In this document: piece after piece, positions 33,404-59,451 of the stretch | Numbering within the stretch: position 1 is the stretch's first letter | Layout: every line of letters begins with the position of its first letter | NCBI GenBank assembly: GCA_013289095.1 | Contig: JABDAO010000002.1 | Coordinates: 2,673-66,672 of the forward strand | Direction: 5' to 3' | DNA length: 64,000 nt | Source: Bacteroidota bacterium | Lineage (GTDB): Bacteria > Bacteroidota > Bacteroidia > Palsa-965 | The notes under the pieces: model-generated | Databases searched by the model: none | Told to the model about the DNA's origin: nothing | Seen by the model: only the letters and a program-made list of their open reading frames with translations | Translations under genes and position numbers: made by a program

Positions 33404-33406
33404 GAT

Positions 33407-34348: not shown

Positions 34349-34437
34349 TGTTAGCAGCAGCCTGTTAGGGCAGCAACAGAGCGGATCGCCTGCTTGAACC
34401 AGACAGAATTCAATCAGTTAGTAGCAGGTATTTGAAT

Positions 34438-35604: not shown

Positions 35605-35710
35605 CAGGAAAAGGATAGGAGCATAGACCGCGATCCTGAATAAGCGCATGGCCGCCAGGCTCCGCGCAGCCCCGATACCTCTTGAAATGAAACACCCGGA
35701 TGAGGCATTA

Positions 35711-37195: not shown

Positions 37196-37255
37196 AAATA
37201 AAGTTGAATGGTCTGCACAAATCGAAATTAAAATTGAGAGTATCCTACTCGTGTG

Positions 37256-38071: not shown

Positions 38072-38205
38072 AAAAGTAAGGCAGATGAATGCGTGTGAGT
38101 GTGTATAAAAGTAGTGTTATTTTGCATTGGGACTGATCCAGACTTAGAATTTAGTGCAAATTCGTATCCTTCTATGGCAGAGTCTGTTAGAATAGCCTGA
38201 AATGT

Positions 38206-39999: not shown

Positions 40000-40007
40000 G
40001 GATCTGT

Positions 40008-42310: not shown

Positions 42311-42365
42311 TCTTTTAAATTATTTCAGAATAAAATTTCTTGCCAAAATACAATTCCAGGATAAC

Positions 42366-43310: not shown

Positions 43311-44014
43311 GGTCTTTTCTTCAGTAAGAGTGAATACTTGACTTCCGCAATTTTCCAGTCCTCCTCAGTATCGATATCCTGTACTTCTGATTCGGGGACT
43401 TCTAATGCTAATGTGTGTTCAGTGAAGAGGCTTCTGGTTGTTAAAAATCGGTCTGTTCTGAAAAAATAGAACTGTCCGCAATCATGGTAGGCTGGTGGCA
43501 GATCTTGTGAACGGGAATTCAGGTTTTCGGGCCAATTCATTTTTGCCAAACCGTTTTCAATCTTCAGTGATCGAAGAATCGGATAACTAAACCGACATAC
43601 TGGAATAATTCCATCAGCAGTCGAGTTTTTTAATTGAAAGTAGGCCTCCCGAAGTTTGTCTTTGTTTACGAAGGGGGCTGTTGGGTAGATGCAACAGAAA
43701 TATTCAAATAATTGATCTGTTTTATGCAATTCGCAGAGAACCTCCTCAAGCACTTCGGCTGTCGTACTCTGGTCATCGGAAGATTTAGCAGAGCGCAGAA
43801 ATGGGATAAATGCTCCAGACGCTCTGGAGATCATGGCAATTTCTTCGCTATCCGTCGAAACCATAACCAGGTCAAAACAACCTGATTGAAGCGCAGCATC
43901 AATAGAATATTGGATGATTGGCTGGCCGAGGAATGAGCGTATGTTTTTTTTTGGTATTCTTTTACTCCCGCCCCTGGCAGTGATTATGGCAACCGCATTT
44001 TTTCGTAGAATCAT
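43307..44014 (-). CDS. pseF: Pseudaminic acid cytidylyltransferase
   Basis: ITARGGSKRIPKKNI, VSTDSEEIA, CCIYPTAPF, RSQDLPPAYHDCGQFY, QDIDTEEDW. Confidence 0.9.
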   Translation of the reverse strand: MILRKNAVAIITARGGSKRIPKKNIRSFLGQPIIQYSIDAALQSGCFDLVMVSTDSEEIAMISRASGAFIPFLRSAKSSDDQSTTAEVLEEVLCELHKTDQLFEYFCCIYPTAPFVNKDKLREAYFQLKNSTADGIIPVCRFSYPILRSLKIENGLAKMNWPENLNSRSQDLPPAYHDCGQFYFFRTDRFLTTRSLFTEHTLALEVPESEVQDIDTEEDWKIAEVKYSLLLKKRP

Positions 44015-44182
44015 ATCTTGTAAATATGCTGTTGGTTCAATAAAAATTCAACAATTTGATAATTTTTTTAGTGATAATTCAGTCGGGATTACTAATTTCA
44101 TCAAAGTTAGGCGAATCTTCCCTGATTTCCTGAACTCTGGCCTGCATAAATGGGCAGAGAATGAAGCCAACGTTACGGCATC

Positions 44183-45214
44183 TCAGTCTTCATCATCTCT
44201 TACCTCCTTTGGTTTCGGGAATGAGTCAGGCTTTAAAAACGAGACTGTATACGAAATCCTCGATTGAACAAAGGTGGTGAAGCCTTTCTTAAAGAGTGCA
44301 ATACTTCTCGATTTGGCAGACTCGCCGGGATCAAGATTGCCCATATTAAAGTAAAGGAGTCCCAGTTTTTGAGCATGTAAAATCGAGAAATAAAGAGTAT
44401 AATGCGAAAGTGGCAGGTCTTCAGCCATCAATTCCCGATCATATACTCCAATTCCGTAATAGGCCGTCTCTGAGCCATGCAAAATATAGGACGCTGCTAC
44501 CAGCTTGTCCTGGTAATAACCGGTCACTAAATAGGCTTTATTTTGCTGAAGCATTTCAAACTGAGTCATCCAGCTCTCATCAGAGCGGGTTGTACGGCCT
44601 GCAACATGGATATGAAAATCCCTGAATTTGATGAATTCGGTTAGTTCGACATCCCTACCTGATATCACTTGCAATTTCAGATTATGAAAGCCCCAATTTA
44701 TCAGCGATTTATAACTTTTTCTGACATTCGTTTTGATAAGATCAGACTGGATGTGCAGATCAATCATTCCAAAATGTTCTATTCTCGAAGATTTGATTTT
44801 ATCATAAAAAGAGTTGACAAAATGCCCATTGGAATAAAATGTCAATTCAGTAAAATTATGCGACTGGATCAACCCCTTGATAAAGGCAATGGTTTTTGTG
44901 AAAGACATCCAAAGAAGTTCCGGGTTCACCTCCAGATAGAATATCTGGGCCGGGTCATTAAAAAAACGGAAACTTGTTCCGCTGGTAAAAATGTAGCAAC
45001 AAAGCACGGGTTTTTCATCATAAAATGCGACCACTGAGAAATCTTCATAGTTTCCAGGAAAGACTTGTGCATTATAAGCAAGGGAAAGCGAATGATAGGT
45101 ATATTCTCGTTGGATCTGATGAAATAAGTCAGAGGATGTGAATTGTCCTTTTTCTAATACAGTTAAATCTCGTAGAAGCTTTACACTGAACATAGACAGA
45201 GAGGGTAAGACCAA
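44183..45214 (-). CDS. FemAB/GNAT-fold protein
   Basis: VRKSYKSLINWG, FHIHVAGRTTRS, AYYGIGVYDR, LFKKGF. Confidence 0.7.
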   Translation of the reverse strand: MVLPSLSMFSVKLLRDLTVLEKGQFTSSDLFHQIQREYTYHSLSLAYNAQVFPGNYEDFSVVAFYDEKPVLCCYIFTSGTSFRFFNDPAQIFYLEVNPELLWMSFTKTIAFIKGLIQSHNFTELTFYSNGHFVNSFYDKIKSSRIEHFGMIDLHIQSDLIKTNVRKSYKSLINWGFHNLKLQVISGRDVELTEFIKFRDFHIHVAGRTTRSDESWMTQFEMLQQNKAYLVTGYYQDKLVAASYILHGSETAYYGIGVYDRELMAEDLPLSHYTLYFSILHAQKLGLLYFNMGNLDPGESAKSRSIALFKKGFTTFVQSRISYTVSFLKPDSFPKPKEVRDDED

Positions 45215-45563
45215 CGATTTGCGTCTCGTAAAATTAGAAAGAAATTCGATTCAGGGCCTGTAAATCAGTCAAATATCGACGATCTGGCTAAGTCCTAGCA
45301 CAAACGAAACAGCAAGACTACACCCTTTGACTAAGCATCAAGCGATATTTACTAAATCCCGGGAGTGCTAATAATCTTCTGTGGGCTTAGCGCCCCCGAT
45401 TGAAAAGATCGCGCCAATATTTCACAAAAGCTTGAATTAATCTTTCTAAAATATTGGTTATCTTGGAAGCCTGATCAGAGCATTTCTTCCTAGTTTAGAT
45501 GAACGATACCTGTGATTAGGAACATTCCGATGTAAATAAATCCATGATTCAACTTTAGTACAG

Positions 45564-46607
45564 ATGATCCAGTCGATTCATATTGAAAATCAATGCATTG
45601 GTGCACTCGAACGCCCATTTATCATTGCCGAGATGTCAGGTAATCATAACAAATCACTGGATAGGGCTATGGAAATTGTAAGGGCCGCCGCCTTAGCAGG
45701 AGCAAGCGCAATTAAATTGCAAACATATACGGCTGATACAATGACGCTTCCGGAGATATTCAAAATTGAGGATGAAAACTCTCTTTGGCAAGGACGTGAG
45801 CTTTATGAACTCTACCAGGAAGCAGCTACCCCTTGGGAATGGCACAAACCTATTTTTGAATATGCCAGATCGTTGGGTTTGGTTGCCTTTTCGAGCCCTT
45901 TTGATGCTTCCTCCGTCGATTTTCTGGAAGAGTTAGGAGTAGGGGCTTTTAAAATAGCATCTTTCGAAAATACGGATTTGCCGCTACTTACCAAAATAGC
46001 AGCCACCCGAAAACCAGTCATTCTTTCAACCGGAGCATCAACCCTAAGCGAGCTGGACGAAGCCGTGAGTACCTTGCGCACTCATGGGTGTACAGAATTG
46101 ATTTTGTTGAAATGCACTAGCACATACCCTGCGAGCCCTGAACAATCAAATTTGAAGACGATTCCGCATCTTCAACAATTGTATCAATGTCAGGTTGGTC
46201 TATCCGACCATACAATGGGTATTGGTGTGCCGATCGCCGCAATCGCACTGGGGGCAACCGTTATTGAAAAACATTTTACTTTAAATCGTGCCGATGGCGG
46301 AGTGGACAGTGCATTCTCCCTTGAGCCTCATGAACTTAAAAGCCTGGTTCAAGAGTCAGAAAGAGCTTTTCTGGCAATGGGGGAGATCCGGTATGGTGTG
46401 CAGGTAGCAGAGCAGAAATCCGTCGCTTTTAAGCGATCCGTCTATGTCGTGAAAGATATCAAGGCCGGGGATTTTTTCTCAGACGAGAATATTCGTGTTA
46501 TCCGGCCCGCAAATGGTCTTGCTCCCAGGTATTATCAAACACTGTTGGGTAAACGGGCCGCTATTGATATCAAAAGAGGTACACCAATGACCTGGGGGTT
46601 GATCTAG
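45564..46607 (+). CDS. pseI: Pseudaminic acid synthase
   Basis: IIAEMSGNHN, IKLQTYTADT, FSSPFD, KIASFE, GLSDHTMG, IEKHFTL, DSAFSLEP, C-terminal SAF domain. Confidence 0.93.
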   Translation: MIQSIHIENQCIGALERPFIIAEMSGNHNKSLDRAMEIVRAAALAGASAIKLQTYTADTMTLPEIFKIEDENSLWQGRELYELYQEAATPWEWHKPIFEYARSLGLVAFSSPFDASSVDFLEELGVGAFKIASFENTDLPLLTKIAATRKPVILSTGASTLSELDEAVSTLRTHGCTELILLKCTSTYPASPEQSNLKTIPHLQQLYQCQVGLSDHTMGIGVPIAAIALGATVIEKHFTLNRADGGVDSAFSLEPHELKSLVQESERAFLAMGEIRYGVQVAEQKSVAFKRSVYVVKDIKAGDFFSDENIRVIRPANGLAPRYYQTLLGKRAAIDIKRGTPMTWGLI

Positions 46608-46660
46608 GCCTTTCAGGCGAAAGCGATATGCCTATAGCTCTTGAACTGCGGAAAACAGAA

Positions 46661-47662
46661 ATGAAAAAAATAATCTTCAGAGCTGATGGTGGGGTCAAAA
46701 CCGGATTCGGGCATATCTATCGGCTGCTGGCATTAGCAGAAATGTTGCGCGAGGATTTTCTGTGCGTCTTTGTCACCTCTGTTCAGAATGATTTTCTTCA
46801 GTCTGAAATTCAAAAGTGTTGTTCATTGCTTATTTTACCTGATTCTGAAAATCCAGTTGATCCAAATGCCGATCTTCCTTTTGATCTTGAACCGTTTCTT
46901 ACCGGAACAGAAATTGTAGTAATCGACGGATATCATTTCAGATGCGCATATCAAATGGCAGTCAAAAACGCAGGATGCAAATTGGTTTGTGTAGATGATC
47001 TCGTAATTCCGGAAATTTGCGCTGATTTAATTATTAACCATTCACCTGGGATCAGACTTGAGGACTACACCGTTTACAAATCCGTCCAACTCTGTTTGGG
47101 CCTGGAGTATGCCATCCTCAGAAAGCCATTTTTCAGGCCATTCCTTATCAAACGGGATAAATATCAATCGGCATTCGTCAGCTTCGGAGGGGCCGATCCT
47201 TTTGGATTTTGCTATAAACTGGCTAGCATAATACTTAATCTTCAGCTATATAGAAGCGTGCATGTGTTGTGCTCCTCCTCGTTTAGCTCTGATCTGCTTC
47301 AGCGGTTAACCGTTCTCGAAGCCAGCTCGAATGACCAGTTGATTTTGCACCTGAACCTTGGCGCCGCTGAAATTGTTGATCTGATGGATGTGTGTACGGA
47401 TGCTTTTGTTTCGGCAAGCACTGTTTTGCTGGAAGCATATTCGAGGGGGCTTCGCTGTTACACCGGTTATTACGTAGATAATCAAAAAAATAATTATTCA
47501 GGGTTTGTTGAAAATAAGCTGGCAATTGGAATGGGGCGGGTGAATGACCTCTCCGATTCTGATTTTAAAGGGCTCTTTCATAAAGATCAATCTGTTCAGC
47601 TTTGCCCAGCGCCGCTTGGTTCAGTAGGAAATATAAAAAATGCATTTAAAACATTGTGCTGA
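46661..47662 (+). CDS. pseG: UDP-2,4-diacetamido-2,4,6-trideoxy-beta-L-altropyranose hydrolase
   Basis: FRADGGVKTGFGHIYR, VIDGYHF, GLEYAILRKPF, FGGADP. Start set at MKKIIF. Confidence 0.88.
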   Translation: MKKIIFRADGGVKTGFGHIYRLLALAEMLREDFLCVFVTSVQNDFLQSEIQKCCSLLILPDSENPVDPNADLPFDLEPFLTGTEIVVIDGYHFRCAYQMAVKNAGCKLVCVDDLVIPEICADLIINHSPGIRLEDYTVYKSVQLCLGLEYAILRKPFFRPFLIKRDKYQSAFVSFGGADPFGFCYKLASIILNLQLYRSVHVLCSSSFSSDLLQRLTVLEASSNDQLILHLNLGAAEIVDLMDVCTDAFVSASTVLLEAYSRGLRCYTGYYVDNQKNNYSGFVENKLAIGMGRVNDLSDSDFKGLFHKDQSVQLCPAPLGSVGNIKNAFKTLC

Positions 47663-47702
47663 CTAAAATAAGGTTTACTTTGAATCGTACAAGCCCGTGA
47701 AC

Positions 47703-48155
47703 ATGATGAATCAAGTCTTAAGAAAAGCTACTTTGGCAGACGCTGGGCAATTATTGGAATGGCGAAATGACGATGGAACACGAAATAATTCGAATTCTAC
47801 AGGACTGGTTTCTTTGGATGCACATTTGGCGTGGTTAACAAAATCATTGGCTGATACCGGTTGCCGGTTCTACATCATGGAAGTGAATAAGGAAGCGGTG
47901 GGAACGATTCGTGACAACCTTGTACAAACGGAAGGTTGCACTAAGCAATACCTATCCTGGACAATTGCTCCAGTCTGCCGGGGTAAGGGCTATGGAACAG
48001 AGATGCTCCATATGTTTTTGAAAGAAAATAAAGGATGCTTTTATGCAGAAATCAAACCTTTCAACCAAAGTTCAATTAAGATGGTGGAGCAGAATCAGTT
48101 TGTTTTGCTAGGGAAAGCCGGTGAAAATTTAGTTTACACGCGAATTGTCACTTAG
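47703..48155 (+). CDS. pseH: GNAT N-acyltransferase (PseH-like)
   Basis: LLEWRND...H..W, GTIR, RGKGYG, NQSS; follows pseI and pseG. Confidence 0.7.
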   Translation: MMNQVLRKATLADAGQLLEWRNDDGTRNNSNSTGLVSLDAHLAWLTKSLADTGCRFYIMEVNKEAVGTIRDNLVQTEGCTKQYLSWTIAPVCRGKGYGTEMLHMFLKENKGCFYAEIKPFNQSSIKMVEQNQFVLLGKAGENLVYTRIVT

Positions 48156-48259
48156 AATCGGCCCGATCAGATGCGGAGATTCACTTTGCTTTGATTAATT
48201 TCCTTTCTTTATACGACTCGATCAGTCTGAAGCTTGTATCACTTAAAATTGTTTCGAAC

Positions 48260-48841
48260 ATGGACTTGCTCTTCGCAACCTCTAATAAAAATAAAGTCAT
48301 TGAAATGAGAACACTACTTGGCCCGGGTGTGCGACTGCTAAGCTTAGAGGATGTTGGGTGTCAGGAGGAGATCCCTGAAACTTCGGATACGATTGAAGGA
48401 AATGCATTGCAGAAAGTTCGATATATCATTCAAAAATATCACATAGATTGCTTTGCTGATGATACAGGAATGGAGGTTGATGTTTTGGATGGCAGGCCCG
48501 GTGTTTTTTCGGCCAGGTATGCCGGGGATTCGAGGGATGCGAATAAAAACATGGACAAGGTGCTCGGGGAGTTGAGTACTCAAGAAAACCGGGGTGCGCA
48601 ATTTAGGACAATCTTGGCGTTAATTCTTGGTGGCAAAGAATTTTCTTTTGAGGGAATTATGCGCGGTACAATTCTATACGAAAAAAGAGGGAACTCGGGG
48701 TTTGGATATGACCCCATCTTTCAACCCCAAGGGTTTTCCCGAAGTTTTGCTGAAATGAATCTTACAGAAAAAAACGGTACGAGCCACAGGGCGGCGGCGG
48801 CACTCAAAATGGCGGAGTTTCTTAATTCCAGGCTTGGATGA
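48260..48841 (+). CDS. rdgB: Non-canonical purine NTP pyrophosphatase (Ham1/RdgB)
   Basis: FATSNKNK, IPET, FADDTG, PGVFSARYAG, GFGYDPIF, SHRA. Start at ATG 48260. Confidence 0.93.
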   Translation: MDLLFATSNKNKVIEMRTLLGPGVRLLSLEDVGCQEEIPETSDTIEGNALQKVRYIIQKYHIDCFADDTGMEVDVLDGRPGVFSARYAGDSRDANKNMDKVLGELSTQENRGAQFRTILALILGGKEFSFEGIMRGTILYEKRGNSGFGYDPIFQPQGFSRSFAEMNLTEKNGTSHRAAAALKMAEFLNSRLG

Positions 48842-48892
48842 CGGTTTCATGGTAAACCCAAAATGAACAGTAGAAACGTAGTGCACTACTGT

Positions 48893-48947
48893 TCAGTGCG
48901 TTTGGATTTTGTGCAGTCCCGATATTCATCGGGATGGGTTATCTCGC
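48893..48947 (-). repeat. REP-like element with TCCCGAT-ATTC-ATCGGGA palindrome
   Basis: About 50-bp inverted relative of 59250-59302 (GATAACCCATCCCGATGA core). Confidence 0.55.
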
Positions 48948-49033
48948 TGCTCCTGAGAGCTGGCGGCCCTTTCAGAGCGTTAGCCATCTTCAACTGAAAA
49001 ATGCGGGATAAACCAACCTGGTTTCGTCGTACC

Positions 49034-50233
49034 TCAAATCAGATGCCGGATTATATAAATCGCATCTGAAAAGGAATTTGCGCGAAAAAAGACATTGGAT
49101 AGAGAAAAGAAACAAAATGTCAGTAATATACTGAGGCGTGAATACACGAGCTTGGGGATTTTTTTAGAGATGAATTTGCGTTGTTTTTTTGTTAAAAATT
49201 CAAAGCAGATGAAGACACTTTGCAAAAAACCATAAAACACAAAATTCCAACTGGCCCCATGCCACAATCCGATAATACTGAATGTAATTACGGTAGCCAG
49301 AATGATTCCCCACTTACCAGCATGTCTGAAGTAGAGAGAGATTGGATTGAAGAGATAATCGTGAACCCAGGATGAAAGTGAAATGTGCCAGCGGCGCCAC
49401 AATTCGGAGATCGATGTTGCTGCAAGAGGCCTGTCAAAATTTTGCATCAGCGTAAACCCCATCACCCTGGCTGCTCCAATGGCAATATCTGAATACCCCG
49501 AAAAATCGCAATAAACCTGCAAAGTAAACCCTGCCGAAGCCACGAGGAAGGGTAATCCGTGATATGCATGAACATCACCAAAGATCGGGGTGATGAGTAA
49601 TGAAATCCTGTCGGCTATGATGCATTTTTTAATGAATCCCCAAAGCATCTGTAGCAGCCCATCGCGGGCATTCTCATAGTTGAATGTATGAGTTTCATAA
49701 AATTGGTGGATAATATGTTGTGGTCGTTCAATCGGACCCGCTACAAGCTGAGGATAAAACATGACGTACAATGCATATATTCCTAGGTTTTTTTCTGCCC
49801 GCTGGTTTCCACGATACACTTCGATGGTATAACTCATTGCCTGGAAAGTATGAAATGACAGCCCGATAGGCAGGAGGATATTTAAGTAGGGTATCGGGTT
49901 TTTGTGCCCTGTAAGGCTGATGAGCCCCGATAAATTGCCGTTTAAAAAGTTATAGTACTTGAATACTGCCAATACCAATACGTTGGCAACGATACTCATG
50001 ATCAGGAACCTCTTCTTTTGGGATATTGTTCCCGCTTTCTGTATGAGTATTCCCGCCCAGTAATCGATAATAATGGTAAAGAACAAAATCAGGATATAAA
50101 TAACCTTGAAATAGATATAGAAAATGCAGCTGGCGAAAAGGAGCAGGCCCCACCTGTATTTATGGGGAAACAGAAAATATAGGAGAGTGACAAGAGGGAA
50201 AAAAAGGAAAAATTCCAGAGAATTAAATAACAT
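49034..50233 (-). CDS. MBOAT family O-acyltransferase #3, C-terminally truncated
   Basis: Intact core (LWRRWHISLS, GLWHGASWNF). Stops 14 aa after FFRA, whereas the paralogues run about 90 aa further to FIYFxF. Confidence 0.85.
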   Translation of the reverse strand: MLFNSLEFFLFFPLVTLLYFLFPHKYRWGLLLFASCIFYIYFKVIYILILFFTIIIDYWAGILIQKAGTISQKKRFLIMSIVANVLVLAVFKYYNFLNGNLSGLISLTGHKNPIPYLNILLPIGLSFHTFQAMSYTIEVYRGNQRAEKNLGIYALYVMFYPQLVAGPIERPQHIIHQFYETHTFNYENARDGLLQMLWGFIKKCIIADRISLLITPIFGDVHAYHGLPFLVASAGFTLQVYCDFSGYSDIAIGAARVMGFTLMQNFDRPLAATSISELWRRWHISLSSWVHDYLFNPISLYFRHAGKWGIILATVITFSIIGLWHGASWNFVFYGFLQSVFICFEFLTKKQRKFISKKIPKLVYSRLSILLTFCFFSLSNVFFRANSFSDAIYIIRHLI

Positions 50234-50942
50234 CAGAGGCCGCGTTAATGATAAAATTCGAACCGTTTATTTGCTGGCTGCAACGTGTTAGAAAACGGAC
50301 ACTTTCAGCCACCTCGTCAGGTTTCAGAAGCTGCTTCAGCGGATGTTGATCACGCATCGTTTCCACAATGCGCTCATCTGTTTCAGAATTCATATTCGTC
50401 TCCATAAAAGCCGGAGAAACCACGTTCGATGTAATATGAAAGGCCGCATTTTCGATAGCCCATGATTTGTGAAGCGATAATAAATAGTTCTTTTGTGCCA
50501 CATACTCACTCCATCCAATCGGCGGTTTGTTAATGATGGCAGAAGAGAGAATGGTAATAATTTTACCAAATCGTTCTTTCCGAAAAAGCAGAAGCGCTTT
50601 TTGAGTGATCTTAATGACAGGAATAACATTCAGTCTAAAGCTATTCAGTATAGCTTCAGGAGACATTTTGTGAAAGTGTTTTTTTTCAAACCCCGCAAAC
50701 GCATTATTGATCAGAATGGTTGGTTTTATTTCTTCCATTTTTACCAGCAGCGATTCAAGGGACGATTCAGATTCGAAATCACAGTGAATGCCTACAACAT
50801 TCGGGAATTTTACGCTGAGTTCTGCCGCGCCCAAATGCGACTTGTTATAAGTAAAAAAGATCCGGTCCTGCTCCTCTGCTGCCAGGGCACGCGTTATTGA
50901 TTCTCCAAGTCCCGAAGCGCCTCCTGTTATCAGTATATTCAT
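50223..50942 (-). CDS. SDR family oxidoreductase (FabG/KR-like)
   Basis: ITGGASGLG, LINNA, YVAQK (YxxxK), VSPAF. Overlaps the MBOAT start by 11 nt. Confidence 0.9.
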   Translation of the reverse strand: MNILITGGASGLGESITRALAAEEQDRIFFTYNKSHLGAAELSVKFPNVVGIHCDFESESSLESLLVKMEEIKPTILINNAFAGFEKKHFHKMSPEAILNSFRLNVIPVIKITQKALLLFRKERFGKIITILSSAIINKPPIGWSEYVAQKNYLLSLHKSWAIENAAFHITSNVVSPAFMETNMNSETDERIVETMRDQHPLKQLLKPDEVAESVRFLTRCSQQINGSNFIINAASDVI

Positions 50943-51045
50943 GTAGGTTTGAATGTTTACAATTCGCTGAAACGAATGCCTTCATCCTCTCAGCTTGCCC
51001 CGGTTTCCATTTCTGTCGGCCGGCGGTCTGAAAAGATTGCAATTT

Positions 51046-51459
51046 TCAGAGAAGCCCTATGCTTATCCGGCCTTTCGCAATCCTTTGACCGGTTTGGTTT
51101 TCGAATAAGTACTTAAATTCAATCACACGGACCGACTCATGCACGTGGTCAATGATGGCCGTAAATCTCAACTCATCTCCCAGATAAAATGGATTTAGGT
51201 AATTAATTTCCTGCGAATGTATAATCACTTCCTTGTCTGGAAGTTTTTCTCCAACAAAGTAAGAGAGAAATCCGCATAAAATATTGCCATACATTACTTC
51301 TGAGCGGAACCCTTTGTTTCTTGCAAAGTCAGCATTTGTATGGAGCGGATTGCAATCCCGGAAGGTTGATTTAAACCCCAGGTATACTTCTTCGTTGACC
51401 TTAAATAGTAAAATTATTTTTTCGCCTTCTTTCAAGAGGTTAGCCAAGCTTTTGTTCAA
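51046..51459 (-). CDS. MaoC-like hotdog dehydratase
   Basis: FRDCNPLHTNADFARNKGF...YGNIL, YLNPFYLGD. Confidence 0.85.
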   Translation of the reverse strand: MNKSLANLLKEGEKIILLFKVNEEVYLGFKSTFRDCNPLHTNADFARNKGFRSEVMYGNILCGFLSYFVGEKLPDKEVIIHSQEINYLNPFYLGDELRFTAIIDHVHESVRVIEFKYLFENQTGQRIAKGRISIGLL

Positions 51460-51682
51460 TGAGATGAATCATGTCGCCAACCTGATTGAAGTTCCTGATC
51501 TCCTGAGAGGTGAACTTCAATTTGAAATGTTTTTCAATTGCAACTATCAACTGTATATGCGTCAATGAATCCCACTCTTCAATGTCCTTGGCCGATGTGT
51601 CAAGCTTTATCTGGAGTGCCTCATTGTCCATGACATCAATAAAAATTTCACTCGTTTCGCGTAGTACCTGATCTGTAGACAT
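51440..51682 (-). CDS. Acyl carrier protein
   Basis: EEWDSLTHIQLIVAIEKHF (phosphopantetheine Ser in DSL); about 80 aa, acidic. Confidence 0.9.
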   Translation of the reverse strand: MSTDQVLRETSEIFIDVMDNEALQIKLDTSAKDIEEWDSLTHIQLIVAIEKHFKLKFTSQEIRNFNQVGDMIHLIEQKLG

Positions 51683-51970
51683 AAAGTTTTTCGTTTCTTC
51701 AGTTGGTGATTCCAAAGGTAATGATTATCGTGTACTTAGCCATATTGGGTCCTGATACCCATTCGTTTATCCCAGAGAGCGGCTTACCTGCTCCGAATCC
51801 TACCGGAGAATGGTAGATCCCCAATGGTACCTGCACATTTTTTCGCTCTTTCGGTATCTATTGATTACGCAAAAGATATGTGAAATGCTCATTGATAAGA
51901 ATCTCCTACTCCAGCAATTGTCCCATAGCCCCTTGTTTACCTGGTTTTGTATTCTGTTAGTCAATGAAGG

Positions 51971-53713
51971 TTAATTGGGGACATTCGTCTCGGTTATATG
52001 CTCAATAAATGTTGGACGTGCCTGGTACGAATTAGCATCCATCAGCCAGTGCCCTTCGAGTGCATTGAAGCCTAGGTTTTCATAATGATTTTTCACGAGT
52101 GCATTTTTTAAGGTTGGCAAATATTCGCCTTTCAGGCACTTAAACCCATTCTTGCAGGCCAGTTCAACAATTGTATTGAGCATGAAATTTTCCATGCCTC
52201 TTTTTAGAACCCGGCAACTCATCAGCCAGGTTTCAATGAAAAGCGTTTCAGTGTCTTGTTTTTCTAAAATGGCAAGGGCGATCAATCCGTTGTCACCATA
52301 TTTGTCTGCCAGGGAAAATGCAAGGGTGTAATATTCGCCTGACTCAGACAAGGTTTTGATCATATCCTCCGTATAGCGGGTTGTTCGGAGGTTGAATTGA
52401 TTCGATCGTTGTGAAAGTTGTGTAACCCGGGGGCAATTGAAGCGTGTGAAAGGTTGTACGAGGGCATTCATCTTTAAGCTCTGTAGAAAATCGTTTTCAT
52501 CCGAAAACGTTTTTTGTAATTCGGCCCTCCTGGCCTCTGTCTGATATTGTTTGGTGCGGGTGGTGTCTTCCTCTGTAAATGATGCTGTTTCGAACAGGTT
52601 CAGTACCTGGAGGCACTGAAGGTATTCTGCCGGGTCTTCAGGTAATTCGGGAACGGTTATTTCAGGGAGGTGGGTACGAACCATATCACGTTCGAATGGA
52701 TTATCATCAAGAAAGACCATCGAATCAAAACCAATATTTAGGATTGATTGGATGTGCCGGATGTTATCGACTTTCGTTTCCCAGTTCGCGATAAAGACAG
52801 CAATGTCTGTTAAGCGAAGCACCATATCCGGATGATTTTCAAAAGGCGCTTTCGCGATTGCCTCTGTATTTTTACTACAAACGGCCAGAATGATTCCCCT
52901 GTTTTTGAGCTGTTTGAGCCAATGCTGGAATTCGGTGAATGCCTTGCCCCCCCCTAAATCTCCAATCTGAATAGATTCAACGCCATCGTCTCCAATGGTT
53001 CCGCCCCATAAGGTATTGTCGAGGTCAAGAATCACGCATTTGATAAAGGTACCCTGGATACTTTGAATAATTTTTGCTGTATTTCTGGCTATGATTGGAA
53101 GAAAATCAATACTGAAAAGAATATCTGTGTTTATATAAACCTTCTCATCGTGTACAAAGGAATAGCCAAACTGATTGTGAAGAGCCGACAAATCATTGAT
53201 ATAGAGTTGTGGGTTCGTAATTGCAAGGTTCATCAAGCCCAGGTTTATGCTTCTGAGCTGATAGATGAATGAGCCCGCTAATTTGTTCGCAAAATTGCCA
53301 TAGATATTGTCTGTTACTTCAGGAAAATTAAAATAAATAACCCTTGATTTTGAGCTAGCATGGAGGTGATCAGTCAGTTGTACAATGGCACGGAGTTGAT
53401 CTGTTGAAAAGCTGGTTTTCTCCGAGTATGATAGTTCATAAAATTTTTTCCTGAGTTTTTGGGTGGATTGAAAGACGATGGTGTAATCGGGGTGGAAGGC
53501 GTATAAATCGGAATGGGGATCAAGTATCTGAAGCTGGATTTGGTTATAGTCGGATTCAAATATCAGAAAATTGATGCCCAAGTTATAACCTGCCCCGCGA
53601 AATGCTTGTACAAACAACTGGCTTGCAGAGTCAGCCAGAACAGCAATTCTTAAAACTGGTAAACCAGCAAAGTCCTTTTTTAGATTTTTCTTGAGCGCCG
53701 AAAATGAGTCCAC
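51971..53713 (-). CDS. fkbH: FkbH-like HAD-IIIC glyceryl-ACP transferase/phosphatase
   Basis: ILDLDNTLWGG, CSKN, FLDDNPFER, QRSNQFNL, DKYGDNGLI, WLMSCRVL. Confidence 0.92.
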   Translation of the reverse strand: MDSFSALKKNLKKDFAGLPVLRIAVLADSASQLFVQAFRGAGYNLGINFLIFESDYNQIQLQILDPHSDLYAFHPDYTIVFQSTQKLRKKFYELSYSEKTSFSTDQLRAIVQLTDHLHASSKSRVIYFNFPEVTDNIYGNFANKLAGSFIYQLRSINLGLMNLAITNPQLYINDLSALHNQFGYSFVHDEKVYINTDILFSIDFLPIIARNTAKIIQSIQGTFIKCVILDLDNTLWGGTIGDDGVESIQIGDLGGGKAFTEFQHWLKQLKNRGIILAVCSKNTEAIAKAPFENHPDMVLRLTDIAVFIANWETKVDNIRHIQSILNIGFDSMVFLDDNPFERDMVRTHLPEITVPELPEDPAEYLQCLQVLNLFETASFTEEDTTRTKQYQTEARRAELQKTFSDENDFLQSLKMNALVQPFTRFNCPRVTQLSQRSNQFNLRTTRYTEDMIKTLSESGEYYTLAFSLADKYGDNGLIALAILEKQDTETLFIETWLMSCRVLKRGMENFMLNTIVELACKNGFKCLKGEYLPTLKNALVKNHYENLGFNALEGHWLMDANSYQARPTFIEHITETNVPN

Positions 53714-53903: not shown

Positions 53904-55454
53904 TTACGCATGCTTAGTCCGATAATTCCAAATCAGTGAAAGGCATTTTTGGATTGATATGGAAGCTAAAATGGTCAGGAGAGCATAGGCCGGGTTAAAA
54001 AACCGGATGTCGATGAACAAAAGGATAAAGGGGAAAACGCAAATTAACACGAGGGTTGCTGAAAGGATGAACATATTTTCCGGATTCCTTGCTCTCCAGG
54101 CCAGAAACCCTCCTGCTAGACCAAATAAAAGGACAATCCAGTAGAGGATTGACTGGCTGATCTTGAAAAAGATCCCGAAGTAATCAGCTTTCATAGAATC
54201 CAGCTTTTTAAACGGAAGATAAATAGACCCGCTGTTGACCAGGAATTCTTTTAGTAGCACGATCCTGTTCAGTACAAAATAGTAAAAGGGTTTTTCCTGT
54301 TTATAATTTATCGTGTAGGCATCAAATCGTGCGTTCAGGATGCGGGCTGCATTGTTTTGGGAAAGTGTATGATGATGGGTATTGTGGTCAATAATCTCTG
54401 TCTGTATAAGCAGAAAATCTCTTCGCATCGATCGAACAGAGTCAAGGTTAAAGGTTGATGTGAAAATACGGGATGGGGGAAGCCAGTCCTTGCCTGCGAA
54501 TGGAGTATTACACATCCACGCCGCCAGGGTATTCGGGCGATAAAAGATCATATCTCCTCCCACCGTTTTGATCCAGTTGTACATATGATATTCCAGGTCT
54601 TCGGCCGGTTCTCCGGTGCCTTCCACCCACCGGTTGTATTGAAATGGAATGATCATCTTCAGATCCCGGTAGTTGCGGGGTATCCACCAAAGCTCAAACC
54701 CTATAAGCCAAATCAAAAAGAGTGAGAGGGGGATACGCATTTTTTTGAACCGGTCAAGTATTGACCGGATACGGATTGACATTCTTTTGCCGTTGTCCCA
54801 GAGAAAATACAGGAGAAAAAAAGGCAGAATCGTAATCGCGATCACGCGTAACAGGATCGTCCAGGTAAGAAGAAGTCCCGAAATGGCGATGAAGGAGTTG
54901 CGCCCGGTCTGTTTGTATCTCATTGCGAAATAGATAGAAAAGATCAGGATGCTTACACCGAGGCTCTCTGGACCAACATAGCGGTCAAGCACACAGACGT
55001 AGGTGGAAATGGAATAAAGAATAAAGGTGATGTAAAAAACAGAAACCTTGTTGGTAAGCATCTGCGAGACCAGGGCCAGATAGTAAATGCTTATCCCTCC
55101 CAGGAGCACTTGTGCGAGGACCAACAAGCCTTTTGCGACAAAAGGGGAACAAAACAAACGGAACAGGAAATAGGGGGCAGCGTAGCCGGGCATCCGTGTT
55201 ACCCGGGTCCACTTATCATCAGGGTTTGATTGGTAATCACCTCCGTTGATCATGGATTCAGCAGGGCCCAGGAAAGTACTGGTTTCGATCGTATTCAGAT
55301 ACGGAACGGAGTTTCCATCTGCCCCTGTCCTTGGATAGTTCACATTACCCAGGTGAAGGATATAGGCGTAGAGAATAGTCTTCGAGAGGATCCCTAGTAT
55401 GATCCAGGTGAACGATCTCTCCGGGCTGAACAAGCTAGCGTTCTTGTTTTTCAT
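53904..55454 (-). CDS. Polytopic GT-C/ArnT(PMT)-like membrane glycosyltransferase
   Basis: TRMPGY loop motif, PESL, multiple TM segments, large periplasmic loop, IRF near the C-terminus. Confidence 0.6.
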   Translation of the reverse strand: MKNKNASLFSPERSFTWIILGILSKTILYAYILHLGNVNYPRTGADGNSVPYLNTIETSTFLGPAESMINGGDYQSNPDDKWTRVTRMPGYAAPYFLFRLFCSPFVAKGLLVLAQVLLGGISIYYLALVSQMLTNKVSVFYITFILYSISTYVCVLDRYVGPESLGVSILIFSIYFAMRYKQTGRNSFIAISGLLLTWTILLRVIAITILPFFLLYFLWDNGKRMSIRIRSILDRFKKMRIPLSLFLIWLIGFELWWIPRNYRDLKMIIPFQYNRWVEGTGEPAEDLEYHMYNWIKTVGGDMIFYRPNTLAAWMCNTPFAGKDWLPPSRIFTSTFNLDSVRSMRRDFLLIQTEIIDHNTHHHTLSQNNAARILNARFDAYTINYKQEKPFYYFVLNRIVLLKEFLVNSGSIYLPFKKLDSMKADYFGIFFKISQSILYWIVLLFGLAGGFLAWRARNPENMFILSATLVLICVFPFILLFIDIRFFNPAYALLTILASISIQKCLSLIWNYRTKHA

Positions 55455-56331
55455 TCGAGTAATTCCAGTTCGATAAATCCTTGCCTAATAAACGAGAAAG
55501 TTCTTCATTATAGGGTTTAAAAAACTCCGAGAGGATCATTCTGCTCCCAGTACTCATGGGTTGGTGAAATTCTTTTGATTTGTTCAGGCCTCTTACAGCA
55601 TTACCATATTTATGGGCCTGGTGGATGGTTGTAAATGGCAAAAGTAATTTTCTCAGTATGCTCTTGTTGCTCAGGGCTTTTGCAACCATTTTTGCATAGG
55701 TTACTGAACGTTGTTTTTGTGTGACGTTGTGTTTTATCTTGGTATTAGGCATAAAATCGGATCTCACACCTATTTTCTGAAAGATTGTTTTGCAAATCTG
55801 AGGGGCATTGTCCTTCAAATCTTCGTAGAAAATAACCTGTACCTGTTCCTTCGGGAAGATTGAATAAAGTATCCGCAGGTGTTGGATGTAAATACCATAA
55901 TCAATAAAAAATTGATATTCCCAGCTTGATTTGTGACTGAGCAACCTGGGGATTTCATCGAACCCAAAGCTTCCGGATCCAGCATTCTTTTCCATCAGAT
56001 AAGATGAATAGGCTCTGTCAACCGGGTTTCTCAGAATTATGACGATTTCACATTTGGGATTGTGAGCATACAGCCTTTTGAGGGCTTCCTCATCACTATA
56101 TAAACTGGCGCTTTTAGCGAGTATGATATCTGAGTCTGAAATTGATTCGGTCTGATAGTATTTCTTAACGGCACTCTCATATCCCTTTTTGTACTCATTT
56201 GGGGTGAGGAAATAAGCGAATTCCTTTTGCGCATGCCTGACAATATTGGGATGTTCTCCCAGGTACATCAGTAACGAGGTTGTCCCAGCTTTTTGTGCCC
56301 CCACAATCATTAAATCAATAGGTCTCATCAC
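55435..56331 (-). CDS. PAPS-dependent sulfotransferase
   Basis: 5'-PSB loop GAQKAGTTSL, KEFAYF, 3'-PB motif LRNPVDRAYS, FYEDL. Confidence 0.88.
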   Translation of the reverse strand: MMRPIDLMIVGAQKAGTTSLLMYLGEHPNIVRHAQKEFAYFLTPNEYKKGYESAVKKYYQTESISDSDIILAKSASLYSDEEALKRLYAHNPKCEIVIILRNPVDRAYSSYLMEKNAGSGSFGFDEIPRLLSHKSSWEYQFFIDYGIYIQHLRILYSIFPKEQVQVIFYEDLKDNAPQICKTIFQKIGVRSDFMPNTKIKHNVTQKQRSVTYAKMVAKALSNKSILRKLLLPFTTIHQAHKYGNAVRGLNKSKEFHQPMSTGSRMILSEFFKPYNEELSRLLGKDLSNWNYSNEKQER

Positions 56332-56554: not shown

Positions 56555-57523
56555 CTAACGCTTTTTAACTCCATCTTGATTAGTGCTTCCGATGTTTAGT
56601 TTTTTTCTCACCTGGTTGCCTATAATAATTGAGTAGTAGGCAGCTCCACTGGTGTTCAAATGTTCGGTGTTTCGAAAGAATTCTCTGTGCTCGCAAAGCC
56701 GGAGGGTGTCTTCGCGAACGAAATCCAATTGACGGGTGGAAGCAATGTGGGTGATCTTTTTGAAAATTTCCTTGGAGTCCAGAACATGACGTTGATAATT
56801 TTTGTTGTACTCAGGTGCCGATGTTAGGAGGAGTTTGATGTTTTTCGAATTACACAGGTCTATGATATGTTCCAATAGTTGTACTCCTTCTTCATCGACA
56901 GGCTGACTCATAAAACGGGTGATGGTATCGGCATTAGACATTTCCAAAAGGGTGTTAGTAGAATACCCCTTATATTGAAACTCATGACCGAGTTTTTGTT
57001 GATTTTCGAGCAGACCTTTTAAAGCATCGGCTAATATTGGATACTCATCGTCCGTAAAATGCAGGAAGGGCAGCAGGCGAAATCTCCAGGGTATGGGTGC
57101 CGCTTTCTCGAGGGTTTTCTCTAGTATGGTGTTGGAAAGATAGGGTCGGTAAGGCATCGATGTCTTTATTTTCTGGCCCAGGTTGAATGAGCCCAGATCG
57201 AGTGTCAGCACGATATACTCGGGCGCAGGATGGACGAGGAGGTAGGCATTGAGGATCATGTTTACCTCAAACAGATTTGCTCCGTCTATTCCGCTGTTGA
57301 TCGAATGCAAACCGGTAACACGGTCAAAAATGGCCGGATTAATAAAATAGTGAATACTCGAGGAGCCCAGGAGCAGACAGTTGTAGGCGGTTGGACGTAC
57401 AAACAGCTCATCCATTTTTTCGTGCTCGCATTTCCCGGCTTCACGCGAGGCAATCAGAAAGGCGAGCTGACAAATAATGCATGCAAGGAGGAGCGAAAGA
57501 ATAATCCGGTAGAACGGTTTCAT
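56555..57523 (-). CDS. SGNH-like periplasmic partner of MBOAT #4
   Basis: N-terminal TM helix (start MKPFY at 57523), LLGSSS, FFRNTEHLNTSGA. Confidence 0.75.
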   Translation of the reverse strand: MKPFYRIILSLLLACIICQLAFLIASREAGKCEHEKMDELFVRPTAYNCLLLGSSSIHYFINPAIFDRVTGLHSINSGIDGANLFEVNMILNAYLLVHPAPEYIVLTLDLGSFNLGQKIKTSMPYRPYLSNTILEKTLEKAAPIPWRFRLLPFLHFTDDEYPILADALKGLLENQQKLGHEFQYKGYSTNTLLEMSNADTITRFMSQPVDEEGVQLLEHIIDLCNSKNIKLLLTSAPEYNKNYQRHVLDSKEIFKKITHIASTRQLDFVREDTLRLCEHREFFRNTEHLNTSGAAYYSIIIGNQVRKKLNIGSTNQDGVKKR

Positions 57524-57567
57524 AGCAAAGAAATCAGGTAGTGCCGCAATAAAAAATAAGCAAAGAA

Positions 57568-59007
57568 TTATAGTTTGGAATAGATGAACATCGAGCTTGC
57601 ACTCGTTCCAAAGATAAGAATCAGTGAAAGAATGATCGAACAAAAGGCTATATCAGCATATGCATTGTCCCATCGTGCTCCAATTTCCCCTTTTATAAGC
57701 ATGTGTATGATGATGAGCAGGGCAATAAAGAGGATGGAAAGGATAAAATTGGTGTACCCAAAGCTGGGTAACAGAAAGGCTGAAAAAGAGAGCGGGGTTT
57801 TCCAAAAGTGTCCGAGCTCACGGATCACGTATATTGAATCGGAGATTGATTGAGCCCTGAAGAATATCCAGCTGAAAGTGATCAGGATAAAGACTGTTAT
57901 CATGGATGGCACAGATACCCATCCGGATTTAAGACCGAGTGAAAGTTTCAATCTGAAATTTCGGGTTAAATATTCATACACCAGAATACTGCCGTGAAGC
58001 AATCCATAGGCCAGAAATGTCCATTGCGCACCATGCCACAGTCCACTGAGAAGAAATGTCGTGAGCAATGCAATCACAACCGACCAATCCCTGAGTGATG
58101 ACATGCTTGCAAAGATTGGCTTGAACAGATAATCATTATACCAGACGGTGAGTGTGATGTGCCAGCGTCGCCAGAATTCGGCCATCGATTTGCTCCGAAA
58201 AGGTTTGTTGAAGTTTGGGGAGAGCCTGAAGCCCAGGATCCGTGCTGACCCGATGGCGATGTCTGTGTAACCCGAAAAATCGCAATAAAGCTGGACGGAG
58301 AAGAAAAGCACGGCAAGCGAGAGGGTGTAGGCATGGAAATCATGCGGGTGCTGATAAACAGTATTCACATAGAGGGCGAGTCGGTCGGCAATGACCACTT
58401 TTTTGAAGAAACCCCAGAGCATCAGCCTTAGCCCGGTGAGGAGGTTTTCGGTGTTAAACAGGTGATTCTCTTTGAATTGAGGTATCAGTGCATAAGGTTT
58501 TTCGATCGGGCCATTGATCAGTTGTGGAAAAAAGAGAGCAGATGATGCATAGACGATGAAATTTCTTTCAGCACTCATTTTTCCACGGTATATCTCAATA
58601 AGATAGCTGATGGAACGCAAGGTATGGAAGGATAAGGCAAGAGGTAAAATTAAATGCAGGTACGGAAGGTGGCTGGTGGTCAGACCGAACGAGGACAAGG
58701 CTTCATTGATTGATTCGGAAAAAAAGTTGAAATACTTAAAAAAGAACAATACACACAAGTGGATGCTGATCGAAGCGAGATAGATTGATTTCTTCTTAGG
58801 CTGGGCTGTGCGTTCGATCAGGATTCCAGCCCCGTAATCAAGGAGAACCAAGGCGAGAAGCAGGAGAATATAAGTGGGTATAAAAGCCATGTAGAAGATA
58901 CAGCTTGCCAACAATAAATGCAGGGCCCGGTATTGATGGGGCATTAAAAAATACAACAGGGCAACGAGTGGAAAAAAAAGTAAAAATTCGAACGAATTGA
59001 AGATCAT
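57568..59007 (-). CDS. MBOAT family O-acyltransferase #4
   Basis: MIFNSFEFLLFFP, FPQLINGPIE, FWRRWHITL, GLWHGA; C-terminus FIYSKL. Confidence 0.9.
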   Translation of the reverse strand: MIFNSFEFLLFFPLVALLYFLMPHQYRALHLLLASCIFYMAFIPTYILLLLALVLLDYGAGILIERTAQPKKKSIYLASISIHLCVLFFFKYFNFFSESINEALSSFGLTTSHLPYLHLILPLALSFHTLRSISYLIEIYRGKMSAERNFIVYASSALFFPQLINGPIEKPYALIPQFKENHLFNTENLLTGLRLMLWGFFKKVVIADRLALYVNTVYQHPHDFHAYTLSLAVLFFSVQLYCDFSGYTDIAIGSARILGFRLSPNFNKPFRSKSMAEFWRRWHITLTVWYNDYLFKPIFASMSSLRDWSVVIALLTTFLLSGLWHGAQWTFLAYGLLHGSILVYEYLTRNFRLKLSLGLKSGWVSVPSMITVFILITFSWIFFRAQSISDSIYVIRELGHFWKTPLSFSAFLLPSFGYTNFILSILFIALLIIIHMLIKGEIGARWDNAYADIAFCSIILSLILIFGTSASSMFIYSKL

Positions 59008-59302: not shown

Positions 59303-59419
59303 TGCATTAGCGCACAAGCCATCTAATGCATAATCTGGGTTTAGGCGATGTTCCTGTTCACGTTCATAAGTCGGTTAATTAGTTGCCTTCCCACCCCTTC
59401 CCAAACGATCCCTATTCAG

Positions 59420-59427: not shown

Positions 59428-59451
59428 AGAAACATTCGTCTATTCATTGCC

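Follow-up and report, generated by a model that had tools for sequence, protein, structure and literature searches.

What does an FkbH-type glycerate loader do in a surface-glycan locus that offers it no ketosynthase? The question is raised by a 64,000-nucleotide stretch of DNA (hereafter, the window) from a Bacteroidota bacterium of the Palsa-965 lineage (GenBank assembly GCA_013289095.1, contig JABDAO010000002.1, positions 2,673 to 66,672 of the forward strand). In this window, genes for an FkbH-type loader, an acyl carrier protein (ACP), a MaoC-type dehydratase, a FabG-like short-chain dehydrogenase/reductase (SDR) and a membrane-bound O-acyltransferase (MBOAT), here called MBOAT1, follow one another between positions 49,034 and 53,713. 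The answer that we favour, judging from gene content, linkage and phylogeny, is that they probably encode a Dlt-like system, loaded by FkbH, for O-acylation of a pseudaminic acid (Pse)-bearing surface glycan with lactyl or glyceryl groups, and that in this lineage MBOAT1 naturally consists of two proteins, a 399-aa core and a separate microprotein carrying the tyrosine shuttle, like DltB and DltX.

The genes come from a metagenome bin (2.9 Mb in 167 contigs, 62% complete) and lie within a 44-kb island with a G+C content of ~42%, compared with 49% in its flanks. An earlier note on this DNA, made from the letters alone, had described five co-oriented genes and had seen no ketosynthase or nonribosomal peptide synthetase in the window, and both descriptions hold. 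All five open reading frames (ORFs) are on the minus strand with unchanged coordinates, and each has its own Pfam or NCBIfam match (Table 1). A domain scan of ~60 ORFs across the window found the surrounding island to be rich in Pse and glycan genes and detected no ketosynthase, AMP-binding or condensation domain.

The FkbH protein has the full make-up of a loader: FkbH_N, HAD-IIIC phosphatase (TIGR01681, 67 bits versus a cut-off of 35.75) and C-terminal FkbH transferase domains, a DxDxT motif and the conserved cysteines C279 and C500. Its residues 3–381 match PDB 3SLR (B. fragilis BF1531, function not known) with an E-value of 2e-135, and D230/D232/T234, C279-SKN, D336-D337 and S499-C500-R501 are at least 97% conserved among 80 homologues. 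In the ACP, D49-S50-L51 is kept across 73 homologues, and the serine for phosphopantetheine attachment is encoded within the operon. The ACP probably starts at ATG 51682, which gives 80 aa as in its homologues. With this start, 288 nt separate FkbH from ACP, compared with at most 70 nt in homologues. This spacer is present in a single copy in the genome, and no Rfam family, protein match or remnant was found in it; its predicted fold is strong (-63.7 kcal/mol, a figure without a shuffle comparison).

The two tailoring genes follow closely. The 20-nt overlap of ACP and MaoC given in the earlier note holds only with the most upstream TTG as the MaoC start; an alternative start at TTG 51435 yields 129 aa and a 4-nt spacer. 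The lengths of homologues (129–139 aa) favour the latter, although the genes are tightly packed either way. The nearest solved structures of the MaoC protein are 3-hydroxyacyl-thioester dehydratase 2 and PhaJ, and those of the SDR are the 3-oxoacyl-ACP reductases CylG and FabG; D35/N37/H40 of the former and TGGxxGxG, NNA and Y147/K151 of the latter are conserved among their homologues. The notion that the pair are stand-alone counterparts of polyketide synthase (PKS) dehydratase (DH) and ketoreductase (KR) domains survives in part. The enzymes are of thioester-dehydratase and ketoacyl-ACP-reductase types and keep their catalytic residues, but they are MaoC/PhaJ-like and FabG-like rather than homologues of PKS DH and KR, and the SDR scores 20.8 bits with the KR model PF08659, below its cut-off of 22.6. 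The 11-nt overlap of SDR and MBOAT1 is firm: the MBOAT1 start, MLFNSLEF, is the conserved N-terminus of the family, and the contig of a close relative shows the identical overlap.

The gene set is conserved well beyond this genome. With FkbH as the query, a search that took a single genome for each species yielded 80 loci (54–61% identity) whose ORFs were matched to the window proteins, and linkage was counted in the 45 loci that have flanks of 4 kb or more to either side. ACP was present in 42 of these and an MBOAT in 36; both occurred in 34, MaoC together with SDR in 20, and all five genes in 15. Most loci belong to Bacteroidota, the others to Ignavibacteriota, Spirochaetota, Bdellovibrionota, Planctomycetota and Methylobacter. 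Its recurrence in dozens of loci across several phyla shows that chance did not bring these genes together, and the neighbourhood survey that the earlier note had called for finds it to be a conserved unit in glycan loci. Its distribution is patchy: FkbH was found in 6 of 41 close relatives and FkbH_N in 4 of 300 genomes drawn evenly from the phylum. The usual order is FkbH, ACP, tailoring genes, MBOAT and then a protein of 300–330 aa, normally a DltD-like SGNH protein. Tailoring genes may be absent or may consist of MaoC and SDR, of an S-adenosylmethionine (SAM)-dependent methyltransferase with a VOC/glyoxalase-fold protein, or of a VOC protein alone; minimal four-gene modules (FkbH, ACP, MBOAT and SGNH) hold no other acyltransferase.

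Several variants are of interest in their own right. Two loci (L102:6716-11449 and L097:9160-12563) encode FkbH, a SAM-dependent methyltransferase (303 aa), ACP, a VOC/glyoxalase-fold protein (130 aa) and an MBOAT, which in L102 is 72% identical to MBOAT1; such a set would yield an O-methylated or epimerised glyceryl unit. In loci without an MBOAT (L059:8001-12326, L062, L063; L020:8001-12594), the slot after ACP is filled by a pair of FabH-like (356 aa) and PglD-like (221 aa) proteins or by an LpxD-like acyltransferase, the latter beside a dTDP-sugar epimerase. In L013 (10824-11711), L015 and L046, ACP is fused to a hexapeptide transferase. The MBOAT-less and fusion loci are probably variants for cytoplasmic N-acylation.

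Whether the MBOATs truly go with ACP is central to this reading. To test it, we built a tree of 126 MBOAT cores and labelled as cassette MBOATs those within 2.6 kb of FkbH or ACP; most of the others were collected from metagenomes with a cassette MBOAT as the starting point. The label requires 11 changes on the tree, compared with a mean of 42 in shuffles, and none of 500 shuffles was as low. MBOAT1 falls in a clade of 31 rows (SH-aLRT 100) consisting of 30 cassette MBOATs and one other, MBOAT2, which is encoded in the cassette operon itself, 4 kb upstream. On the contig of the relative, a 479-aa MBOAT and its 318-aa partner take the same position, directly upstream of FkbH. MBOATs of similar identity that lack FkbH and ACP, fetched with a cassette MBOAT as the query, fall outside the MBOAT1 clade, and the two other MBOATs of the window (18476-19906 and 7652-9073) lie outside the cassette clades. 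That MBOATs adjacent to FkbH and ACP form clades of their own argues that the cassette MBOAT consumes acyl-ACP, and MBOAT2 probably draws on the same ACP as MBOAT1. The loci do not look like those of an enzyme that takes acyl-CoA without a carrier, since ACP and the loader are linked to an MBOAT in the majority of loci counted above and the clades follow this linkage.

MBOAT1 is shorter than its relatives (399 aa versus 468–505 aa). It covers positions 24–376 of the 380 of the DltB model (TIGR04091) and retains His325, which is invariant in all 126 sequences, and it is without the two C-terminal helices that bear the tyrosine shuttle motif. All ~120 full-length MBOATs examined end in a motif of the FxYxxF type, 92 of them in FIYFQF. 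This ending occurs elsewhere in the window: a plus-strand frame at 33134-33403 is open, contains two hydrophobic helices, ends in FIYFQF and aligns end to end with MBOAT C-termini. A 482-aa full-length MBOAT from another assembly (L103) tiles the two pieces with no gap or overlap, its residues 1–395 matching 50233..49037 (53% identity) and its residues 398–482 matching 33146..33400 (48% identity, E-value 8e-18). In MBOAT2, by comparison, the shuttle tyrosine is retained in a fused tail. Identity of the C-termini is a poor guide to the pairing between the tail and MBOAT1, as tails diverge fast (mean identity of 24% among MBOATs with cores 50–63% identical).

The closest database relative of MBOAT1 (P0002, 80% identity) is likewise 399 aa long and has the same end, IYIIRHLI, whereas relatives at 68–72% identity are full length. 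Its contig encodes, in order, a 91-aa protein, the 479-aa MBOAT, the 318-aa protein, FkbH, ACP, MaoC, SDR, the 399-aa MBOAT, an 81-aa ORF that starts 40 nt after it, and a 317-aa protein with a faint match to DUF1574, the family most often matched by cassette partner proteins. The 78 differences between P0002 and MBOAT1 avoid conserved columns: 4 are in the 117 columns conserved at 70% or more, compared with 23 expected (P = 5.5e-9), and none in the 62 columns conserved at 90% or more. For this reason the core has remained under purifying selection since the split. The split also appears older than the rearrangement described below, because P0002 has the same length together with a colinear 81-aa ORF and a gene in the SGNH position. 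The suggestion in the earlier note that truncation of MBOAT1 may have inactivated export is thus at odds with the shared form and end, the selection on the core, the retained His325 and the intact frame of the tail. That note had missed the sixth and seventh parts of the system (the microprotein and its SGNH partner), as well as the inversion and a second MBOAT–SGNH pair.

The position of the tail is best accounted for by an inversion. Because the L103 MBOAT tiles both pieces exactly and the order in the relative is colinear, we infer, from the assembly as it stands, that a block at about 33134-49033 has been turned round with respect to the canonical order. Both breakpoints map to the short spacer that separates the core stop codon from the microprotein and cut no reading frame, and reverting the block would align PseI, PseG, PseH and Ham1 with the strand of PseB. 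No repeat common to the two junctions and no inverted repeat of at least 9 nt between them was found; CCGAT..ATCGG palindromes were considered and rejected, as they lie 60–115 nt from coding ends and are not copies of each other. At one junction, a 160-bp dispersed repeat that looks like a miniature inverted-repeat transposable element (MITE) lies 20 nt beyond the MBOAT1 stop and has 43 matches in the assembly (42 besides itself), at most 98% identical. About 300 nt to the left of the other junction is an array of a 21-bp minisatellite family (32746-32838, tandem units like GTATTTACGAAGGAGAAGAGT). Dozens of arrays of the same family are found elsewhere in the genome, and this one is part of the 1 kb of non-coding DNA that separates PseB from the detached MBOAT tail.

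The gene that follows the microprotein, h313, encodes the presumed cognate SGNH partner of MBOAT1. Its AlphaFold2 model (pLDDT 86, pTM 0.84) has an N-terminal membrane helix and a predicted DltD-type SGNH fold; the top PDB matches are the DltD structures 7dxm, 3bma, 6pfx and 6o93 (E-value 5e-5, probability 1.0), followed by GDSL esterases and PatB. The protein is 54% identical to the L103 partner, the one homologue retrieved with it as a search query, and shows homology with the proteins encoded after cassette MBOATs. An alignment of 53 partners contains a GxS block, an asparagine and the invariant histidine of a DxxH motif, and its profile matches GDSL hydrolases (E-value 4e-7), DltD (6o93, E-value 1e-5) and AlgX. 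The partner of MBOAT2 gives weak but consistent BLAST matches to the partners of cassette MBOATs and belongs to the same alignment (A1), with the conserved GxS...DxxH signature.

Taken together, these parts suggest a five-step pathway, of which the first two steps rest on characterised homologues or analogous domains and the other three on linkage, the MBOAT tree and conserved motifs. Loading of glycerate from 1,3-bisphosphoglycerate onto ACP is the established chemistry of the FkbH family, and in the first step FkbH would place a glyceryl group on the phosphopantetheine arm of the adjacent ACP. MaoC would then remove the C3 hydroxyl to give an enol-pyruvoyl and subsequently a pyruvoyl-ACP, whose 2-keto group the FabG-like SDR would reduce to form lactyl-ACP. 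A DH–KR pair turns glyceryl-ACP into lactyl-ACP in FR901464 and lankacidin biosynthesis (PMC4765723). By this analogy, lactyl is the likeliest identity of the acyl group, at about even odds, and tailoring is the weakest step of the mechanism because MaoC and SDR belong to other families than the PKS DH and KR. In the third step, acyl-ACP would dock on the cassette-type MBOAT, and His325 would move the acyl group to the tyrosine of the periplasmic FxYxxF tail, which is fused in MBOAT2 and would be provided to MBOAT1 by the separate microprotein. The DltD-like SGNH protein would take the acyl group from the tyrosine and esterify a glycan hydroxyl outside the cytoplasmic membrane; in DltX and PatA, it is through the tyrosine of the motif that the SGNH enzyme receives the acyl group (PMC12148441). 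The likely acceptor, in the last step, would be the Pse-containing glycan of the surrounding island. The inversion would have moved the microprotein and the SGNH partner of MBOAT1 16 kb away and left every reading frame whole.

The same loader, carrier and tailoring enzymes could instead feed cytoplasmic N-acylation of Pse or another amino sugar by a soluble FemAB-like or PseH-like transferase, with the MBOAT–SGNH pairs acting independently as acetyl-CoA-dependent O-acetyltransferases. The cassette does abut a complete Pse set, a FemAB-like gene and transferases of the BFO_1060 family for nonulosonic acids (NulO). Some FkbH–ACP loci without an MBOAT have the FabH-like/PglD-like or LpxD-like N-acyltransferases or the ACP–hexapeptide fusion described above, and in L079 FkbH–ACP is embedded between PseC- and PseI-like genes. 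Such groups are known on Pse: Tannerella forsythia carries Pse5Am7Gra, for which the glyceroyl gene is not yet identified (PMC6120980), and C. jejuni makes di-O-methylglyceroyl-Pse (PMC3068675). Yet MBOAT clades track the presence of FkbH and ACP, the SDR/MBOAT overlap is kept in the window and in the relative, and the minimal modules leave the MBOAT as their sole acyltransferase. No FabH-like, LpxD-like or hexapeptide transferase was detected among the scanned window ORFs, and the normal donor of FemAB-family enzymes is aminoacyl-tRNA. We consider N-acylation an unlikely explanation of the cassette as a whole; O- and N-acylation uses of one acyl-ACP could coexist. The locus might also be in decay, with MBOAT1 a truncated pseudogene, the tail encoded from 33.1 kb a dead remnant, and the parts uncoupled by the inversion. 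The short MBOAT1, the displacement of the tail and SGNH partner to the other strand 16 kb off, and the mobile repeat abutting the junction would fit this. So would the frameshifted MBOATs in other loci from metagenome-assembled genomes (MAGs; L027, L105 and L136) and the small FIYFQF proteins in databases, mostly contig-end or frameshift fragments. Against it, the 80%-identical relative shares the form and its exact end, substitutions shun conserved columns, both frames are intact with their motifs kept, and the breakpoints spare every ORF; decay seems to us improbable. Similarly low is the chance that the inversion arose as an error of assembly, in which case the actual gene order would be colinear, as on the contig of the relative. 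Fragmentation of the metagenome bin and the many-copy repeat at one junction speak for an error, but since the junctions share no repeat, an assembler would have had no obvious reason to flip the block, and gene orientation is coherent at both junctions.

The Dlt-like reading that we prefer to these alternatives has weaknesses of its own. The function of every component is deduced from sequence, linkage and phylogeny, and the lactyl product follows from an argument about chemistry, as the PKS domains that catalyse its formation share no homology with MaoC and SDR. The tree sample is biased, as cassette MBOATs were gathered through FkbH, so that the tree is support and not proof; MBOAT1 is 53–57% identical to non-cassette MBOATs, the same as to many cassette ones, and donor specificity may therefore switch easily. 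The three loci with an ACP–hexapeptide fusion still carry an MBOAT, and a soluble enzyme could be the consumer there. MBOAT2 ends in FIYSKL rather than FxYxxF. As for the split, the 81-aa ORF of the relative is known by its length and position, and a word-index search did not link it with the microprotein; nor was the 317-aa partner of the relative retrieved with h313 as the query. In their inverted position, the genes for the microprotein and its SGNH partner require a promoter of their own, and none was identified: promoter and terminator scans, based on sigma-70-type models ill-suited to Bacteroidota, gave no excess over shuffles. A word-index search found no homologues of the microprotein, and an exhaustive search returned ten small FIYFQF proteins. 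As the three that we looked up were contig-end or frameshift fragments, we do not claim that stand-alone microproteins are common. A related break is seen in an MBOAT-FkbH-ACP-MaoC-SDR-SGNH locus (L105:6001-7456), where the MBOAT stops at 415 aa and the tail, with FIYFQF at its end, is read in a different frame. Either the frame has shifted at the very domain boundary where the window MBOAT is split, or the sequence contains an error.

We compared the cassette with the known systems that share its components. In architecture it is closest to the Dlt pathway, which D-alanylates teichoic acids in Firmicutes through DltA, DltC, DltB, DltX and DltD, and in this lineage all five roles appear to be assigned to separate proteins. 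Both systems are organised as operons and have a small phosphopantetheine carrier protein, an MBOAT of ~400 aa that has no tail fused to it, a membrane microprotein encoded on its own and ending in FxYxxF, and a membrane-anchored SGNH protein of the DltD fold. In contrast to the ATP-dependent D-alanine ligase of Dlt, the cassette loader is of the FkbH HAD/transferase type and would use a glycolytic intermediate; no AMP-binding ligase of the DltA type was found among the scanned window ORFs, and FkbH occupies the loader position. A dehydratase and a reductase would modify the acyl group while the carrier bears it, and an uncharged lactyl or glyceryl is predicted instead of D-alanyl. The host is a Gram-negative member of Bacteroidia, which has no teichoic acids, and in view of this and of the loader type, D-alanine and teichoic acid are unlikely here. 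MBOAT1 is not a DltB orthologue (TIGR04091, 149 bits versus a cut-off of 375), with its extent and catalytic histidine alone matching. The microprotein, with two helices, is homologous to MBOAT C-termini and not to DltX, to which it would be analogous in role. The Dlt-like logic put forward in the earlier note thus stands for the roles of loader, carrier, MBOAT and DltD-like partner and fails for orthology to DltA and DltB, and in its acyl group and acceptor the cassette is almost certainly not a Dlt system. Two Ferruginibacter MAGs (L006:12634-17413 and L012:6742-11611) have, directly after FkbH, ACP, MBOAT and SGNH, genes for an AMP-binding enzyme, an unassigned 221-aa protein, ACP, MBOAT and SGNH; by its domains, this second module is a Dlt-like one from Bacteroidota whose loader is of the adenylating type.

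With the PatA/PatB, AlgI/AlgJ/AlgX and WssH-type systems, the cassette shares an AlgI-like MBOAT (AlgI is the name given to its database homologues), an SGNH partner and a predicted periplasmic polymer as the acceptor. Relatives of the cassette MBOAT also carry the fused two-helix FxYxxF tail of these systems; nearly all are fused, whereas that of MBOAT1 is detached. These systems use acetyl-CoA, whereas the cassette has a linked ACP, loader and tailoring enzymes and, here, a separate tail gene. The PKS loaders (FkbH, OzmB and those of tetronates) resemble the cassette in the FkbH_N/HAD-IIIC/FkbH architecture, which scores above the curated cut-off, and in the dedicated adjacent ACP, and its dehydratase–reductase pair is placed to act on a tethered C3 unit, as is the DH–KR pair of FR901464 and lankacidin biosynthesis. 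In contrast to the PKS systems, no ketosynthase or nonribosomal peptide synthetase accompanies the cassette in the window, the tailoring enzymes are free-standing and of the MaoC and FabG types, and the acyl-ACP is predicted to be used by a membrane acyltransferase encoded among glycan genes. The O-glycosylation and Pse locus of Tannerella forsythia is similar to the island in its Pse genes, BFO_1060-family NulO transferases, FkbM methyltransferases, Wzx and glycosyltransferases, and its glycan bears a known C3 hydroxyacyl decoration. That decoration, however, is an N-linked glyceroyl on Pse, with no FkbH or MBOAT involvement reported.

To our knowledge, the only described carrier-protein route of this type is the D-alanylation of teichoic acids, and our literature search, in which subscription journals were thinly covered, returned no description of FkbH acting with an MBOAT in glycan synthesis. 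We therefore put forward, tentatively and with less confidence than the pathway itself, a second carrier-protein-fed route for acylation of envelope polymers across the membrane. It would place lactyl (an uncharged isostere of D-alanyl) or glyceryl esters on NulO glycans of Gram-negative bacteria. In the window lineage, an AlgI/PatA-type MBOAT would also have undergone natural fission, with a core that resembles DltB and a microprotein that resembles DltX as the products. A 2025 mechanistic study of PatA/PatB states that, Dlt aside, neither a carrier protein nor a DltX-like microprotein is part of MBOAT–SGNH pathways (PMC12148441); dozens of cassette lineages have the former, and this one appears to have the latter as well. 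If the proposal is correct, the split lineage would be a living intermediate that explains a possible origin of the five-part Dlt machine in a fused MBOAT, and a natural split-MBOAT system with which to probe the acyl-tyrosine shuttle model. Surface glycans would receive hydroxyacyl esters, beyond acetate and D-alanine, straight from glycolysis, by means of loader and tailoring genes that are swappable (none, MaoC with SDR, or methyltransferase with VOC protein) and of an acyl-ACP module that can feed membrane or soluble acyltransferases. For glycan chemists, the cassette would be a genetic marker of unusual base-labile C3 esters and a candidate logic for unexplained glyceroyl groups on pseudaminic acids. 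What this window adds is the selection on the split form, the displaced pair of microprotein and DltD-like protein, and two MBOATs of the cassette clade served by one FkbH–ACP module.

Table 1 Cassette genes, associated parts and junction features in the window (positions 1 to 64,000)
Feature	Coordinates	Strand	Remarks
MBOAT2	57568..59007	-	479 aa, full length, ends FIYSKL; first operon gene; PF03062, E 2.4e-19
SGNH/DltD-like partner of MBOAT2	56555..57643	-	longest ORF 362 aa; likely start Met41, ~322 aa
Sulfotransferase	55435..56331	-	298 aa; PF00685, E 2e-15
PMT_2/GT-C-like polytopic membrane glycosyltransferase	53904..55454	-	516 aa; PF13231, 28.8 bits vs cut-off 26.1
FkbH-type loader	51971..53713	-	580 aa; FkbH_N, E 2.4e-61; TIGR01686, 301 bits vs cut-off 146.65
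FkbH/ACP spacer	51683..51970	-	288 nt, from FkbH end to likely ACP ATG
ACP	51440..51715	-	PF00550 (PP-binding), 24.5 bits vs cut-off 20.8; DSL motif
MaoC-type hot-dog dehydratase	51046..51459	-	PF01575, 29.7 bits vs cut-off 27
FabG-like SDR	50223..50942	-	adh_short, E 7e-27
MBOAT1 core	49034..50233	-	399 aa; PF03062, E 5e-17
Dispersed repeat	48853..49013		~160 bp; between Ham1 and MBOAT1 stops, right-hand block junction
Detached MBOAT tail (DltX-like microprotein)	33149..33403	+	84 aa from TTG, or 68 aa from ATG 33197
DltD-like SGNH transferase h313	33407..34348	+	N-terminal membrane helix; presumed MBOAT1 partner
Inverted block (inferred)	33134..49033		~15.9 kb; holds microprotein, SGNH, AT3, Wzx and most Pse genes

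The cassette is part of a longer operon in the order MBOAT2, its SGNH partner, sulfotransferase, PMT_2/GT-C-like gene, FkbH, ACP, MaoC, SDR and MBOAT1. The nearest relative has neither the sulfotransferase nor the PMT_2/GT-C-like gene on its syntenic contig. These two genes (53904-56331), between the MBOAT2–SGNH pair and FkbH, hence look like a lineage-specific insertion into the operon. The island encodes PseB, PseC, PseF, PseG, PseI and a PseH-like GNAT protein, as well as Wzx, several glycosyltransferases, four FkbM methyltransferases and a FemAB-like protein. The PseH-like and FemAB-like genes, which the earlier note had placed nearby, are indeed close to the cassette, at 47697-48155 and 44183-45214, respectively. 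The latter encodes a 343-aa protein inside the Pse block that matches the FemAB family model with an E-value of 2e-29, below the cut-off. Also inside this block, at 38206-39999 and 40008-41018, are two matches below the cut-off to the BFO_1060 family, which takes its name from a NulO transferase of Tannerella forsythia.

The density of glycan acylation genes in the window is unusually high. Two more MBOAT–SGNH pairs are encoded at 6491-9073 and 17514-19906, one of them with a partner of the AlgX/DHHW type, and an AT3 acyltransferase is encoded at 34432-35604. Divergently from the cassette operon, at 59383-62145, lies a gene whose 920-aa product contains two D-Ala-D-Ala ligase modules in tandem.

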